A stretch of 64,000 bases of DNA, from assembly GCF_963921235.1 (NCBI RefSeq), contig NC_086108.1, positions 35,404,001-35,468,000 on the forward strand, written 5' to 3'. Positions 49,975-63,499 of this stretch are shown here, in pieces. Below the pieces are notes generated by a model that had not been told where the DNA came from, did not search any database, and saw nothing but the letters and a program-made list of their open reading frames with translations. Numbering within the stretch: position 1 is the first letter of the stretch; each line of letters opens with the position of its first letter. A program made the position numbers and the translations under genes. The DNA comes from Mobula hypostoma (Eukaryota).

Positions 49975-50578
49975 AAGCAAGGATGCAATGTTGAGACTTT
50001 ATAAAGCACAGAAGAGGCCTCATTTGGAGTATTGTGAGCAGTTTTGGGCCCCTTATCTCAGAAAGGAGGTGTTAAAATTGGAGAGGGTTCAAAGGAACCC
50101 TCAAAAATGATTCCAGGGTTCAATGGTTTGTCATATGAAGAGTGTTTGATGGCTCTGGGTCTGAATTCACAGGAATGCAGAAGAAGGAGGTGTAACCTTA
50201 TTGAAACCCATCGAATGGTGAAAGATCTTGATAGAGTGAATGTGCAGCAGATGCTGCCTATGGTGTGAGAGTCGAGTCTAAGTCCAGAGGACACATCCTC
50301 AGAATAGAGGGGCGTCCTTTTAGAACGGAGATGATAAGGAATTTCTTTAGGCAGATAGTGCTGAATCTGTGGAATTCTTTGCCACAGGCAGCTGTGAAGG
50401 CCAAGTCTATGTATATTTAAGGCAGAGGATGATAGAGTCTTGATTGGTCAGGGCATGAAAGAATACAGGGAGAAGGCAGAAGGTTGGGGCTGAGATGAAA
50501 AATGGATCAGCCATGATGAAATTGCAGAACAGTCTCGACGGGCCAGATGGCCTAATTCTGTTCCTATATCTTATGATC
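49975..50578 (+). mobile_element. CR1-clade LINE, 5'-truncated 3' end (ORF2 C-terminus and tail), decayed
   Basis: Translates to SKDAMLRLYKAQKRPHLEYCEQFWAPYLRKEVLKLERVQR, then after a frameshift MIPGFNGLSYEECLMALGL...LIETHRMVKDLDRVNV, the typical CR1 ORF2 C-terminus. Ends in gggccagatggcctaattctgttcctatatcttatgatc. Confidence 0.92.
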
Positions 50579-50770
50579 TTTACAGTGGCAAAATAATTTA
50601 TCAACGCACTTGTCATTCGGATATCGGTAGAAAGTGAAGCATGAGGGGAAACCCCAATGTTTGACAGGGAGAACATGCAAACTTCTACCCAGCCAGCATC
50701 AGAGGTGAGGACTGAACTGGCGTGGCTGGGGTTATGAAGCAGCACCTCTACAGCTGCACTATCATACTGA
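50579..50770 (-). mobile_element. V-domain SINE, head portion (continuation of the 49,825-49,974 copy)
   Basis: tttacagtggc...gacagggagaacatgcaaact...gaggtgaggactgaactgg...gcagcacctctacagctgcact is a degenerate reverse complement of the V domain plus a tRNA-derived head. Confidence 0.7.
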
Positions 50771-51659: not shown

Positions 51660-52140
51660 TTCAGACCTCACTGCCCCCTCAGTCTTTTATTCTTTCTTTC
51701 CTCACCCATTTTATCCACCTGCCTGTTACCCACAATCTCACGTGGTCCAATATCTCCCCTCCCCACTGTTCCATTTTACCCGCCACTATCTCTCCCTCTT
51801 GTTCCATTCACCGCTTTCCTTTCTTATCAGATTCCATAATCAGCAACTCTTTGTTATCTCCACCAATCACCTCCTGGCCTCTGTCACTATCTCCGCCCCT
51901 CCCTCCCACCCCCGGCCCCATCTGCCCGTGAACACCTCCGCATCGGGATTCACCTATAGTGTTGCCATTCCTGCTTCACTCCTCCTCATCTCTTCATACT
52001 TTCTATCTACTCTTCACACTCTCATTCCTGATGTGAGGGTCTGTACCCAAAATACTGACTCTCTATTTCCCTCTGCAGATGAGCTCTGACAGCAGCTCAT
52101 TTCTGGCTCCAGCGCCCAACATCTGCAGTCTCTTGTTGCT
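51660..52140 (+). mobile_element. Old Penelope-like element 3' region / pLTR remnant
   Basis: A pyrimidine-rich stretch followed by cctgatgtgagggtctgtacccaaaatactgact...cagatg...ccaacatctgcagtctcttg, colinear with the better-preserved copy at 57,204-57,746. Confidence 0.6.
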
Positions 52141-52589: not shown

Positions 52590-53190
52590 ACCAAGTCAGG
52601 CAGCATCTGTGGAGAGGTAGAAAGAGAAACAGTGTTAAAGTTTCAAATCCAGGAGCCTTCCTCAGAATTGGGAAAGAGAAAGCCGAACTTAGCTTTAGGT
52701 TGTGCAGAACTCTGCGGTGGTGGGTGGGTGGGGGGAGGTAGAAGGGGAAGGAAAAGAGTTAAGTACAAACGTTGATCAAAGGGAATTTCCCCAATAAGGT
52801 GGGAGCAAATAGATTAAGCAGCAGTTAGAAAGTGATCATGCTTCTCTGACTGTACTCTGTGTTCCTAACAGTAGGGCTGTGGGATATGCTCCTCAGGTCT
52901 GAGTACACTCACAGACCGAGAAATGGCCGGCGAGTTACCTAAACTTGGAAAACGCGATATTCGGTCTGGGGAGCTGCACTGTAGACAGATGGAACTTGAA
53001 GTCTGCATTAGGCCTCATTGTAACAGTACCAGAAGCTACAGGAGCTGGAGTGGAAAGGGGAATGAAAAGTGGCAGGCAACGGGAAGTGCAGGGTTGCCAC
53101 TGCAGACTGAACGCAGGTGCTCAGCAAAGATATCAGTCAATTTGCATGCAGAGGAGCCTACATTGTAAACAACAAATGCAGTACACCGAT
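52590..53190 (-). mobile_element. Penelope-like element fragment with decayed GIY-YIG endonuclease C-terminus
   Basis: The minus strand gives VYCICC...(frameshift)...DIFAEHLRSVCSGNPALPVACHF, matching the PLE GIY-YIG region (VYCIxC...RFAEHLRSV...LPVAxHF). The pLTR-type end caggcagcatctgtggagag lies at ~52,598. Confidence 0.75.
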
Positions 53191-54838: not shown

Positions 54839-55059
54839 CAAAAGTCTGCAGGTGGAAAAATATGTTGAAAACACTCAACAGATCAGACAACGTTCGTGGA
54901 AAAAAGTTGAAGGCACTTAGGTCAAAGAACTTCATCAGATAGTTGGATAAGATTTGGGCAATTGTCTTACTTAGCTCACCTCAAGATTTCCCAGGACTGG
55001 CCATGACATCTCCGATACCTCTAGTCCATCCCTATGCAATCCAGCCAATATTGGGCAGA

Positions 55060-55593
55060 GGCACATCCCATTCCCATTCCGATAAGTCAATCCATGGCCT
55101 CCTCTACTGTCGCGATGAGGCCACACTCAGGTTGGGGGAACAAACCTTATATTCCATCTGGGTAGCCTCCAACCTGTGCCGTGAACATCAATTTATCGTA
55201 CTTCTGGTAATGACCCCACTGCCCTCTTGTTCACCAGTCCCCATCCCCTTTTCCTCTCTCACTTTATCTCCTTGCCTCCCTCTGGTGCTCCTCCCCTCCC
55301 CCGTTTCTTTCTTCCATGGCCCCTTCTATCCCCACCTATCAGACTCTCCCTTCTCCAGCCCTGTATCTCTTTCACTAATCAACTTTCCAGCCCTTTACTT
55401 CACCCCTCCTCCTCCCGGTTTCACCTATCACCTTGTGTTTCTCTCTCCCCTCCCCTGCCTTTTAAATTTACTTCTCATCTGCTTTTTCTCTCCAGTCCTG
55501 CCAAAGGGTCTCAGCCCAAAATGTCAACAGTACTTTTTCCCACCGATGCTGCCTGGCCTGCTGAGTTCCTCCGGCAGTTTGTCTGTGTTGCTT
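55060..55593 (+). mobile_element. Penelope-like element 3' fragment (GIY-YIG C-terminus and pLTR)
   Basis: TSHSHSDKSIHGLLYCRDEATLRLGEQ.. matches the 57,204 copy (YCKDEATLRLEEQHLIFRLGSLQP). Ends gatgctgcctggcctgctgagttcctcc...tgtgttgctt and contains a decayed hammerhead motif at ~55,494-55,530. Confidence 0.88.
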
Positions 55594-55944
55594 ATTGGAA
55601 GTCTGTTTTGAGTGAAGAAGGTGCAAAGAAGAGTTAGTATTAAGTGTGAACAGTGTGTAGAGTAAGAGTCAAGCTCATGGAGGCCAAATGACATGTTTGA
55701 AGTGGAATTGACCCTTAAATTGGAAAGTTTTAATAAGTACAGCCTGTTCTATGAGTAAGCAACAAGAGTTGCATTATTGCTGGTATCATTGGGGCAGGTT
55801 TCACACAGTAACTATGATGCTAATTCTAGTTAATCTGGGATCATCTGTTCTGTGCTGCCATGAGACCCATAAGCAGTCACAATTTTGCTAATATCATTTT
55901 CAAGTGCATGCATTGTATCCTGCAGAATGAATTTCTAGGCCACA

Positions 55945-56040: not shown

Positions 56041-56712
56041 AAGCTTTTTCACTCAATAACTCAAAAAGCTTGACATTGTAGTTGGAGACCACCCACAAGC
56101 CCTCACTATATTTGAGATTGTGCACTACTCTGAACTTCCTCCCTGTCACCTCACAGATTATCTATCTAATAGGTTCCATATGAAACACATCCACCAATAT
56201 TGCCCCACTCTTGCCCCTTTTAGTGGGGTCCCCATTTCACGAAGCCCCTTCACAAGTTACCTAAGAGAACTGAGTCTGCCCTGTGACTGTGGCTGAGACA
56301 TTCCCATGCTGAAGAGCTCCTGGTTTGCAATTCATATCGTCACCTTTCTCTCAGGTTAGACTATCAAAATCCAGAGACTTTTCTTATACAACTGGTGGGT
56401 GTCATGGGATAGTTGCTGTGGCTGTAGTAGTAGTTAGTGGTGATATTCCTCCACCACCCAGTCAGCCACTCGCACATGGGAGGAGTTCACATACTGTGCA
56501 CGCAGTGCTATCAATAACGCTCAGTTGAATATTTTGCAAGGTTGGCGTTCGGGTGTCTCTGCACTCTCCCTCAATATTGAACGCAACAGTTGTGGGCTCT
56601 GAGTGCAAGTTGGCTGAAAAGGAGTGGAAGCAACAATGCTGTTATTTAAGCAACACACATCAAAGTTGCTGGTGAACGCAGCAGGCCAGGCAGCATCTCT
56701 AGGAAGAGGTGC

Positions 56713-56748
56713 AGTCGACGTTTCAGGCCGAGACCCTTTGTCAGGACT
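56713..56748 (-). ncRNA. Hammerhead ribozyme motif with a core mutation (CUGACAA)
   Basis: The reverse complement reads AGTC-CTGACAA-AGGGTCTCGGCCT-GAAAC-GTC-GACT, identical to the right-arm motif except G8>A. Confidence 0.65.
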
Positions 56749-57605
56749 AACTGAAGGAAGAGTGAGTAAGGGATTTGAAAGTTGGAGGGGGAGGGGGAGA
56801 TCCAAAATGATAGGAGAAGACAGGAGGGGGAAGGATGGAGCCGAGAGCTGGACAGGTGATTGGCAAAAGGGATACGAGAGGATCATGGGACAGGAGGTCC
56901 GGGAAGAAAAACAAGTGGGGCGGGGGGACCCAGAGGATGGGCAAGGGGTATATTCAGAGGGACAGAGGGAGAAAAAGGAGAGTGAGAGAAAGAATGTGTG
57001 TATAAAAATAAGTAACAGATGGGGTACGAGGGGGAGGTGGGGCATTAGCGGAAGTTAGAGAAGTCGATGTTCATGCCATCAGGTTGGAGGCTACCCAGAC
57101 GGAATATAAGGTGTTGTTCCTCCAACCTGAGTGTGACTTCATCTTTACAGTAGAGGATAGTCTGAGTCAAAGTGTGGTCGAAAAGTTGAAGAGCCGAAGA
57201 AAATCTACTGTAAAGATGAAGCCACACTCAGGTTGGAGGAACAACACCTTATATTCCGTCTGGGTAGCCTCCAACCTGATGGCATGAACATCGACTTCTC
57301 TAACTTCCACTAATGCCCCACCTCCCCCTCGTACCCCATCTGTTACTTATTTTTATACACACATTCTTTCTCTCACTCTCCTTTTTCTCCCTCTGTCCCT
57401 CTGAATATACCCCTTTCCCATCCTCTGGGTCCCCCCCCCTTGTCTTTCTTCCCGGACCTCCTGTCCCATGATCCTCTCATATCCCTTTTGCCAATCACCT
57501 GTCCAGCTCTTGGCTCCATCCCTCCCCCTCCTGTCTTCTCCTATCATTTTGGATCTCCCCCTCCCCCTCCAACTTTCAAATCCCTTACTCACTCTTCCTT
57601 CAGTT

Positions 57606-57641
57606 AGTCCTGACGAAGGGTCTCGGCCTGAAACGTCGACT
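57606..57641 (+). ncRNA. Minimal type I hammerhead ribozyme motif in the Penelope pLTR
   Basis: AGTC-CTGACGA-AGGGTCTCGGCCT-GAAAC-GTC-GACT. Conserved CUGANGA and GAAA boxes, a stem II hairpin, a GUC cleavage triplet, AGUC/GACU stem I and a palindromic ACGU in place of stem III. Confidence 0.75.
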
Positions 57642-58244
57642 GCACCTCTTCCTAGAGATGCTGCCTGGCCTGCTGCGTCCACCAGCAATTTTCATGTGTG
57701 TTGCTTGAATTTCCAGCATCTGCAGAATTCCTGTTGTTTGCGTTTAAATGCTGTTATTTAACCTTATTCCGTCTTGGGCCAACAATTGGCACACACAGTT
57801 TAGTACAAAAGGAGAAATCCATCTCTCTACACGTACATAATGCTTATCCTTCTAATCCTTACATCCTGGATGTTCCTTACTGTCCCAGCCCCAGCCTTTT
57901 CTTCAAATGGTGACTATCCCCCTTTAAAATGTGCAATAAAGGACAAGAATTTCGAAGGACATTGAATACTGAATTGATCAGTATCTCTATTTACCGATAC
58001 TTAACCACTCCCTAGCTGAATCCTTATGTATGCAAAGGATCCAATTAGTTCTGTTCTGTTAAGCATTATGATGAGGCATGCTATGAACAGGGGACGGACT
58101 TTGTTGTCTTTTTATGGAGTTGTGTGCCAACTGACAGAACAGTACAGGATCGAGTAAAAAAAACTCACTTAGCTACCTGATTGTCAGAAAATGAATAAAA
58201 AACTAGCTTGAACAATTATCTTGTTTGCTATGTGCTCTGTGATT

Positions 58245-58490
58245 CTGATGCTGAGATATTCTCACTAGTGGGAGAGTTACAAATCAGGGAACGTAGCTGA
58301 AAAATAAGGGGTCAGTTACTTAAAATTGAAGTGCATAGAAGTTTCATCTCCCTGAGCATAATGAAACCTTGGAATTCTTTATTACTTAGGGTGGTGGAGG
58401 CCAGATCATTAGTTATGCTTAAGATGAAGATTGATAAATATATGAAAGGTCAAGAAATTTAGGGTCCTGCTCCTATTTTCCTGCATTCTT
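58245..58490 (+). mobile_element. Old CR1 LINE 3' fragment
   Basis: gatattctcactagtgggagagttacaaatcaggg...aaaataaggggtcag...ttggaattcttt...ggtggtggaggcc...ttaagatgaagattgataaata...cctgctcctatttt, colinear with the 50,250-50,575 CR1 end. Confidence 0.7.
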
Positions 58491-58558
58491 ATAATCCAAC
58501 TGAAATTGAAACTTTGCCTAAATACTAACAGCATAGTCAGTGTGATTCTTTTTTTCAG

Positions 58559-58692
58559 TCCGCCTGGTGAAAAACTAGTGGGATTGATGATTCTATGTAT
58601 TGATGTGTCGCCAAAACTCCCTTAGCACAGTGACAATGCTTCAACAGGAGCTTCAACAGGGGAATTCTATCTGCGTTTCTAATATTTCTGTG
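58559..58692 (+). other. Candidate exon A of an unidentified spliced transcript
   Basis: Perfect branch point TACTAAC (58,523-58,529), acceptor ttctttttttcAG, donor TG|GTAAGG. There are stops in all three frames before an ATG at 58,636. Confidence 0.35.
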
Positions 58693-59021
58693 GTAAGGTC
58701 TCTTTCTCAACTGCACTGTCGATGTATTTCCAACAATTAAACAAGAAAGTCCAAGGCTTCTGTTTAATTTGTGGTTAGATCTGTCCTGTGTGACTGTAAA
58801 ACAACACCGGGGAACTTCGAGGTCATTGACTGGTTGACGTTTTGTGAAGTCTTGATCTAAACTGCTAGAGGTGGTACGTTAGCAACTATTGACTTCCTGT
58901 CTGTTGCTGGCCTTTAGCCAACACAGCAGAAAGATGCTGTGTGCAAGCAATTCTTGGCCATTGGGTTCTACTGAGCTAGCTCAATAAATGCATACCATTC
59001 TCTAATCTTTCTTTCACACAG

Positions 59022-62414: not shown

Positions 62415-62636
62415 AGAGACACAAGTGATACCGCAGATGCTGGAAATCTGGAGGAACGCACACAAAAGGCAAGAGGAACTCAATGCTTCGGGCAGTGCCT
62501 GTGGAGGAAAATGAGCAGTCGATATTTCGAGCGAGACCTTTCATCAGGATCTAACATCCTGAACTGGCAACTGTTCCGTTTTCTCCTTTGATGCTGCCTG
62601 GCCTACTGAGATCCTCCAGCGTTTTGTGCGTGCTCC
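62415..62636. mobile_element. Short foldback element made of two opposed Penelope pLTR ends
   Basis: The left part (gcagatgctggaaatctgga..acacaaaa..gaggaactca..ggcag) and the right part (gatgctgcctggcctactgagatcctccagcgttttgtgcgtgctcc) are imperfect reverse complements. A minus-strand hammerhead-like motif CTGATGA...GAAATATCGACT lies at ~62,517-62,550. Confidence 0.7.
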
Positions 62637-63014: not shown

Positions 63015-63135
63015 ACTGGTCCTGAAGAAGGGTCACGGCCTGAAATGTTGACTGTTTATTCATTTCCATTGAGTTCCTCCAACATGTTGTGTGTTTTGCT
63101 TTGGACGTCAGGCATCTGCACACTTTCTGGTGCTT
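63015..63135 (+). mobile_element. Penelope pLTR fragment with hammerhead-like motif
   Basis: ggtc-ctgaaga-agggtcacggcct-gaaat-gtt-gact (63,018-63,053), then gagttcctccaacatgttgtgtgttttgctt...gcatctgca. Confidence 0.75.
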
Positions 63136-63499
63136 ATGTTACTGTTCAAGAGGCCTTGTTGCACACTGTCTTTTCAACCTCGTTTCAGAGCTGGACCGCA
63201 AAATGTTCTGTATTAGGAATCAAGGGCACTGGTATTGACACACTCTCCCTCGGATCTGTCATTATCTTCTCAAGATAGATTCTGTGCATGGTTAAATAAT
63301 GTAAGGATAAAGTTAATTATGTAAAAACATAATTTTTAATGTCACATTGTTTTAATCTCAGATTAAACTGCTGTACTAGACACCTATTTGACAATACGAC
63401 ATTCAGAAGAACCACAACTGAAACTCCCACCCGATGTCTGCTTCCTGTCTCCTCTTTCACCTGGAGTCTGCAAAATGTACTGCTGAAATTATTGAGCCA

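Follow-up and report, generated by a model that had tools for sequence, protein, structure and literature searches.

How did two nearly identical copies of a retroelement 3′ end come to face each other inside a single target-site duplication (TSD)? The question is raised by the palindromic unit at 56635-57761 of the window, meaning the whole stretch of 64,000 nucleotides analyzed here. The unit had been predicted from its letters to be a Penelope-like element (PLE) inserted in one event, or else a non-autonomous foldback element. For comparison with relatives, contigs of 4 of 16 listed runs (X3, X5, X9 and X10, corresponding to organisms A-D) were aligned, spanning 57130-59000 only; organism A (run X3) is possibly the source of the window itself. 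Among the runs left aside, X11-X16 contained almost none of the sequence words looked for.

Anatomy and family of the unit

The features of the unit are collected in Table 1. By repeat search, the inverted segments were recovered as 56644-56923 paired with 57431-57710 (96%) and 56919-57154 paired with 57204-57439 (98%), with a gap of 49 nt between the arms. In a global alignment of the reverse complement of 56650-57154 with 57204-57704, 490 of 505 columns were identical (97.0%, or 97.8% without gaps) and the differences comprised 11 substitutions and four gap columns in one C-run, in agreement with the predicted inverted arms of ~505 bp and ~97-98% identity. The exact 15-bp direct repeat said to bracket the arms was also confirmed: over the whole 64 kb, the 15-mer has two occurrences, one at each border of the unit, and is absent from the minus strand. 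An exact 15-mer at both junctions is expected by chance at ~1e-6, allowing 10 nt of slack per side, and the left junction is uncertain by 2 nt, as 56648-56649 fit both target and element.

Table 1. Features of the palindromic unit, in window coordinates
Feature	Position	Strand	Remarks
Left TSD copy, 15 bp	56635..56649	+	Final 2 nt compatible with the element too
Left arm: inverted, 5′-truncated 3′ end of a PLE classed as Neptune-type, with a short 3′ end lacking the tail	56650..57157	-	
Left-arm minimal hammerhead motif	56713..56748	-	Core position 8 is A, not G (56739, CpG-type change)
Left-arm last codons of the GIY-YIG endonuclease, then stop	57048..57157	-	89% identity to P0002
Spacer, 46 nt, non-element	57158..57203	.	
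Right arm, paired part: 5′-truncated PLE 3′ end	57204..57704	+	
Right-arm order: GIY-YIG C-terminus (as far as 57310), pyrimidine-rich 3′ region, pLTR end		+	
Right-arm minimal type-I hammerhead motif, core intact	57606..57641	+	1 match, 0/100 shuffles
PLE tail, 42 nt, right arm only	57705..57746	+	Family sequence, not target-derived
Right TSD copy, 15 bp	57747..57761	+	

Both arms are 5′-truncated inside the GIY-YIG coding region close to the same nucleotide, as had been proposed, with starts 3 nt apart. In the loose-end consensus of all four runs, TCC are the last family bases 5′ of 57204; three further bases of the left side (to 57157) therefore count as element, and the foreign spacer measures 46 nt; the 49-nt spacer of the original prediction therefore holds as the unpaired gap, and 3 nt of it belong to the left-arm element. 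The spacer has no internal hairpin (-1.5 kcal/mol) and is not element sequence from directly upstream. Its best match elsewhere in the window was 11 nt (E 0.45), with no second copy there; an exact 28-nt scan of metagenome contigs gave 0 hits, no Rfam family was matched, and translated comparison with 68 fetched proteins gave a best E of 0.086 among the matches listed. No listed contig of the four runs lies on the spacer, the first depth bin mixing arm and spacer. At the other end of the right arm, the 42 nt at 57705-57746 are lacking from the left arm; this tail was found at high contig depth in all four runs, and the same extension is present on older copies in the window.

The left-arm translation of 40 residues matched all five candidate proteins, with the best matches in Mobula hypostoma (P0002) and Hypanus sabinus, so that the host is probably a ray. 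P0002 also matches the arm reading past the stop codon and so belongs to the same subfamily as the arms. When 11 of the fetched proteins were aligned, three features of P0002 proved to be conserved: the reverse transcriptase (RT) motif YIDD, a CX4CXXC linker and a GIY-YIG domain of CCHH type. C279, C282, H301 and H317 are invariant, as are linker residues C236, C241 and C244 (11/11), the linker lying outside the arms. The GIY-YIG profile match of P0002 (E 4.6e-4) is below Pfam's cut-off, and its full-length relatives contain both RVT_1 and GIY-YIG. The fusion of a PLE-type RT to a CCHH GIY-YIG endonuclease that marks EN+ PLEs is thus seen through P0002, the arms themselves holding only the last ~35 codons, and the Penelope-like origin that had been proposed was upheld by this match. 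A CX2-5CxxC linker between RT and EN is described as excluding Penelope/Poseidon and leaving Neptune or Nematis (PMC8557442), and the CX4CXXC linker of P0002 has the Neptune-clade form; the family is accordingly classed as a Neptune-type PLE on the linker and the vertebrate host. The unit has the 5′ truncation, inverted copy, one-sided tail and variable TSD of EN+ PLEs as given in PMC8557442. It has no partial tandem with a direct pLTR, no direct tandem copy being found within it by repeat search; in the PLE papers, the partial tandem is frequent and typical for full-length insertions and is not obligatory for truncated ones. In a separate observation, P0004 (Rhinoraja longicauda, annotated as neuromedin-U receptor 1) ends in the GIY-YIG C-terminus of this PLE family, reflecting either a gene-model error or exonization.

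Helix-III-less minimal hammerheads of metazoan PLEs were defined in PMC4209133. In the right arm, a core at 57610-57637 is intact (CUGAcGA, short stem II, GAAAC-GUC and a 4-bp stem I), with a predicted cut after 57637, and its pLTR thus carries the minimal hammerhead motif expected of EN+ PLEs. The left arm gave no match to an intact hammerhead core; mutation of core position 8 abolished hammerhead activity in the anole element, from which the core numbering is taken (PMC11167929), and the left-arm hammerhead is probably inactive. An Rfam search of the unit returned no hammerhead match, while matches to MIR408 and mir-5886 on the palindrome were far below gathering scores and reflect the stem alone. 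That stem is long: as had been anticipated for a transcript, the unit is predicted to fold into a hairpin of -1046 kcal/mol with 510 paired positions and perfect runs of 106, 92 and 86 bp. A cruciform in DNA, also suggested at first, is unlikely with a loop of ~46 nt. The unit encodes no protein, its arms look neutrally diverged and it most likely has no function.

Further repeats were observed in the window. Decayed PLE fragments lie at 51939-52129 (+), 52591-53188 (-) and 63016-63137 (+), with a GIY-YIG remnant encoded at 53063-53188 and hammerhead-like cores at 52665, 62547 and 63022. An older, diverged head-to-head pair of related PLE ends is present ~5 kb away at 62419-62631, where a tailed minus-strand copy abuts a plus-strand copy with a short end; no TSD of at least 6 nt was found round it. 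A plus-strand PLE copy at 55060-55593, 68% identical to the right arm and with a short end, follows a faint pLTR-like end on the minus strand (~54846-54940), and direct repeats of 7 bp start at 54842 and 55599; 54842-55605 is possibly a third head-to-head insertion, but the 7-bp repeat could be chance. Positions 1-49310 are occupied by a 42-bp satellite (~1,176 copies, 87% matches, strong C-over-G skew) in which the regular spacing of variant words hints at a higher-order repeat structure. Interspersed repeats lie at 49985-50580, which we take to be similar to a LINE 3′ end, and at 58201-58515, where contig depth is raised in all four runs.

A probable single insertion and its age

Contigs ending at the right junction were compared among the four organisms, a bridge across the junction being counted only with at least 31 letters on the tail side. 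The flank contig of A starts 25 nt inside the tail and that of B ends 27 nt inside it, both short of this rule, as would be expected where contigs break at a repeat. The flank contigs of C and D leave the alignment within the target repeat (at 57752 and 57750, respectively), and their remaining 113 and 67 nt match nowhere on the stretch. This is the pattern that an empty site would give, as judged from one contig each at depths of 4.5 and 5.8. The check for an empty site put forward in the original prediction was thus answered in part: contigs of the more distant C and D depart inside the 15-bp repeat, while the empty site itself is deduced from a single contig in each.

Palindromes are known artefacts of assembly and of library preparation, and no aligned contig of the four runs spans the unit over 57130-59000. 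The arms nevertheless show 11 differences from one another, and each has changes of its own; the TSD and the family-typical one-sided tail are present and the tail-flank junction recurs in another species, so that a fold-back artefact of the assembly or library is hardly credible. As to the changes themselves, 13 of the listed difference rows fall within the arm, of which 11 concern a letter common to both arms and two are private changes of the right arm; comparison with P0002 gave a private change of the left arm, and private changes are thus on both arms. Four of the 11 differences between the arms are CpG-type.

At all 11 listed subfamily-variable places, both arms carry the same letter, and the alternative accounts for 16-61% of contig depth in A and B as against 95-100% in C and D. 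The letters of the arms are therefore common in A and B and nearly absent from C and D. Both arms accordingly derive from a subfamily whose expansion took place in the A+B lineage, a pattern indicative of a large burst specific to that lineage. Contig depth is higher on the arm than on the flank by a factor of 3e5 to 9e5, a ratio that is not a copy number. Depth over 57319-57444 falls sharply in C and D.

Divergence between the arms was 11/501, or 2.2% (95% CI 1.1-3.9). With record spans as denominators, flank divergence was 27/1279 (2.1%) between A and B, 60/1253 (4.8%) between A and C and 64/972 (6.6%) between A and D, compared with the arm-arm value at p = 0.86, 0.011 and 0.00015, respectively. 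These values fit an insertion somewhat older than the split of A and B, at which the two arms would have been the same, with the caveat that gene conversion between the arms could lower their divergence.

The single exact TSD round both arms, the common subfamily letters, the contigs of C and D and the matching divergence together make it very probable that both arms arrived in one insertion, and the central claim of the original prediction, a single insertion with a target-site duplication, is supported. In a family of such extreme abundance, one can imagine that two members of the young subfamily inserted independently, the later one at the 5′ end of the earlier, and the anole protein is able to nick its own pLTR DNA (PMC11167929). 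There is, however, one TSD only, enclosing both arms with no inner duplication, the truncation points lie 3 nt apart and the divergence fits simultaneous arrival, which makes this account very unlikely.

A somewhat less remote alternative, improbable all the same, is that the whole arm-spacer-arm unit belongs to a non-autonomous foldback family and was moved from a master elsewhere. It draws on the termini and TSD of the unit and on the mobilization in trans of sequence captured by PLE pLTRs (PMC3846280). Against it, the divergence between the arms already equals the minimum age of the locus set by the A-B split, leaving little room for an older master; in all four runs, hundreds of contigs run upstream of 57204 into ordinary element sequence; and a 500-bp hairpin RNA would presumably be a poor template for reverse transcription. 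Nothing that was found supported this part of the original prediction, the window containing no other copy of the unit. That the unit is a single insertion of an autonomous, very high-copy Neptune-type PLE can, taken as one statement, be held with considerable confidence.

Origin of the inverted arms

The likeliest mechanism is priming from both ends of the cut target at the two start sites of the element, to which we assign a probability of roughly 0.55. The PLE RT-endonuclease would have made two nicks in an AT-rich site, one per strand and separated by 15 nt, and element RNA would have been reverse-transcribed from both 3′-OH ends. Synthesis from the bottom strand would have begun at the distal start site and yielded the right arm, including the 42-nt tail; synthesis from the top strand would have begun at the proximal start site and yielded the tailless left arm. 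Both cDNAs would have stopped near the same point of the GIY-YIG region, most simply by running off one RNA end; repair would then have joined them head to head with 46 nt of captured filler, fill-in would have produced the 15-bp duplication and the arms would have mutated independently after insertion.

Both classes of 3′ end recur among older PLE copies in the window, with short ends at 55593 and 62631 and tailed ends at 52129, 62419 and 63137 (the class of the end at 52591 is ambiguous), in keeping with priming at two start sites. The two putative nicks lie at or beside ATT. Each arm also has element bases that the other lacks, the tail on one and 3 nt at the 5′ end of the other, although the argument from the 3 nt is weak, since such a match has a chance of 1 in 64 and the opening of a hairpin could leave 3 nt too. 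Nothing in the model makes two separate cDNAs end within 3 nt of each other, so that a shared template end must be assumed, and the in vitro evidence for such priming comes from a Poseidon-clade element and not from Neptune.

The main rival, a serious contender that we nonetheless judge less probable, holds that a single tailed cDNA, primed from the bottom strand, folded back and was copied as DNA; the 3′ end of the top strand would then have annealed near the short end, and the tip of the resulting hairpin would have been opened and repaired with the 46-nt filler. Arm starts within 3 nt of each other then follow without extra assumptions, and self-priming has been proposed for head-to-head PLEs with palindromes at their junctions (PMC3846280). 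Yet the center of the unit neither derives from an element loop nor forms a hairpin by itself, so that hairpin opening and filler capture must be added, and the left arm has three element bases that are absent from the right arm. The short end is moreover family-wide, with copies ending at 55593 and 62631, so no special target is needed to account for it.

The target sequence bears on both mechanisms. The end of its top strand resembles the element just past the short end with a score of 10; among 23,074 background 15-mers, 82 scored as well, and 37 did so among the 1,939 with a terminal AA. When duplex energy was used instead, ~5% of background was as good, a level at which the match is unremarkable and counts against folding back, and 0.9% among AT-rich 15-mers. 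The resemblance, at a single locus, is suggestive and would fit two-ended priming and a folded-back cDNA alike. It is tentatively proposed, as a doubtful but specific version of two-ended priming, that the unit may be an in vivo footprint of target-primed reverse transcription from both ends on one RNA, with the top strand aided by base-pairing at the proximal site and both cDNAs running off one 5′ end. If this were true across the copies of the lineage, one mechanism would explain both the inverted repeats and the one-sided tails of PLEs, and the in vitro claim of homology-independent priming would be qualified.

As a single locus, the unit is of little weight, being a dead copy that makes no protein in a layout already in print, and its value is that of a clean, datable specimen. 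The origin of tandem and inverted PLE structures is listed as unresolved in PMC8557442. In this lineage, the subfamily is young and enormously amplified, its TSDs are intact and close outgroups exist, so that two-ended priming and folding back could be told apart by surveying such pairs genome-wide. Many such pairs inside transcripts could be a large source of dsRNA.

Comparison with known systems

In L1 twin priming, both target strands prime reverse transcription and an inversion arises within one TSD. The L1 inversion concerns a different, upstream part of the RNA, whereas here the same 3′ segment is present twice. In a literature search in which most subscription journals were outside the scope, no paper was found on batoid PLEs or on two-ended priming as a source of such palindromes.

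The typical layout of EN+ PLEs, with an inverted 5′-truncated copy adjoining the 5′ end, often a one-sided tail of 30-40 bp and a hammerhead in the pLTR, is described by Craig et al. (2021, PMC8557442), and the same layout is given in PMC8969392; PMC6155905 is further literature for comparison. The statement in the original prediction that PLEs often insert with an inverted pLTR copy is thus part of the published layout (PMC8557442). The inverted truncated copy and the one-sided tail are already on record for PLEs, and the site is a clean example of an arrangement that is not new. Like canonical EN+ PLEs, the unit has an inverted copy that gives inverted repeats round it, a tail on one side and a hammerhead in the pLTR; unlike them, its copies are equally truncated, it has no partial tandem or ORF body, its tail measures 42 nt and 46 foreign nt lie between its copies (PMC8557442).

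In Penelope elements of Adineta vaga, inverted pLTRs with a TSD and an optional tail on one of them are likewise found (Arkhipova et al., 2013, PMC3846280). The TSDs there are 8-10 bp, head to head is the commonest arrangement and unrelated sequence is captured between pLTRs (PMC3846280); the A. vaga junctions show short palindromes, in contrast to the non-palindromic filler and 15-bp TSD of the present unit.

Metazoan PLE hammerheads resemble those described here in having a core without helix III in the pLTR (Cervera and De la Pena, 2014, PMC4209133). That paper also notes paired motifs in Schistosoma, located on opposite strands at distances of 100-700 bp, whereas here the motifs are ~0.9 kb apart and one core is mutated. 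Non-LTR retrozymes are head-to-tail tandem repeats of hammerhead-bearing units (bioRxiv 10.64898/2026.07.22.740005); the present units lie head to head and form no tandem array.

In vitro, the protein of PAc, a Poseidon element from Anolis carolinensis, cuts each of the two target strands and extends it, with a preference for ATT (Frangieh et al., 2024, PMC11167929), and its RT starts at two sites downstream of the hammerhead whose interval equals the genomic tail (PMC11167929). The unit resembles it in having two classes of 3′ end that differ by the tail, with a hammerhead upstream, and strand nicking here would have been similar. PAc belongs to the Penelope/Poseidon clade, and its start site is reported as non-homologous to the cut DNA (PMC11167929), whereas the element described here is Neptune-type and its target partly matches the proximal start site.
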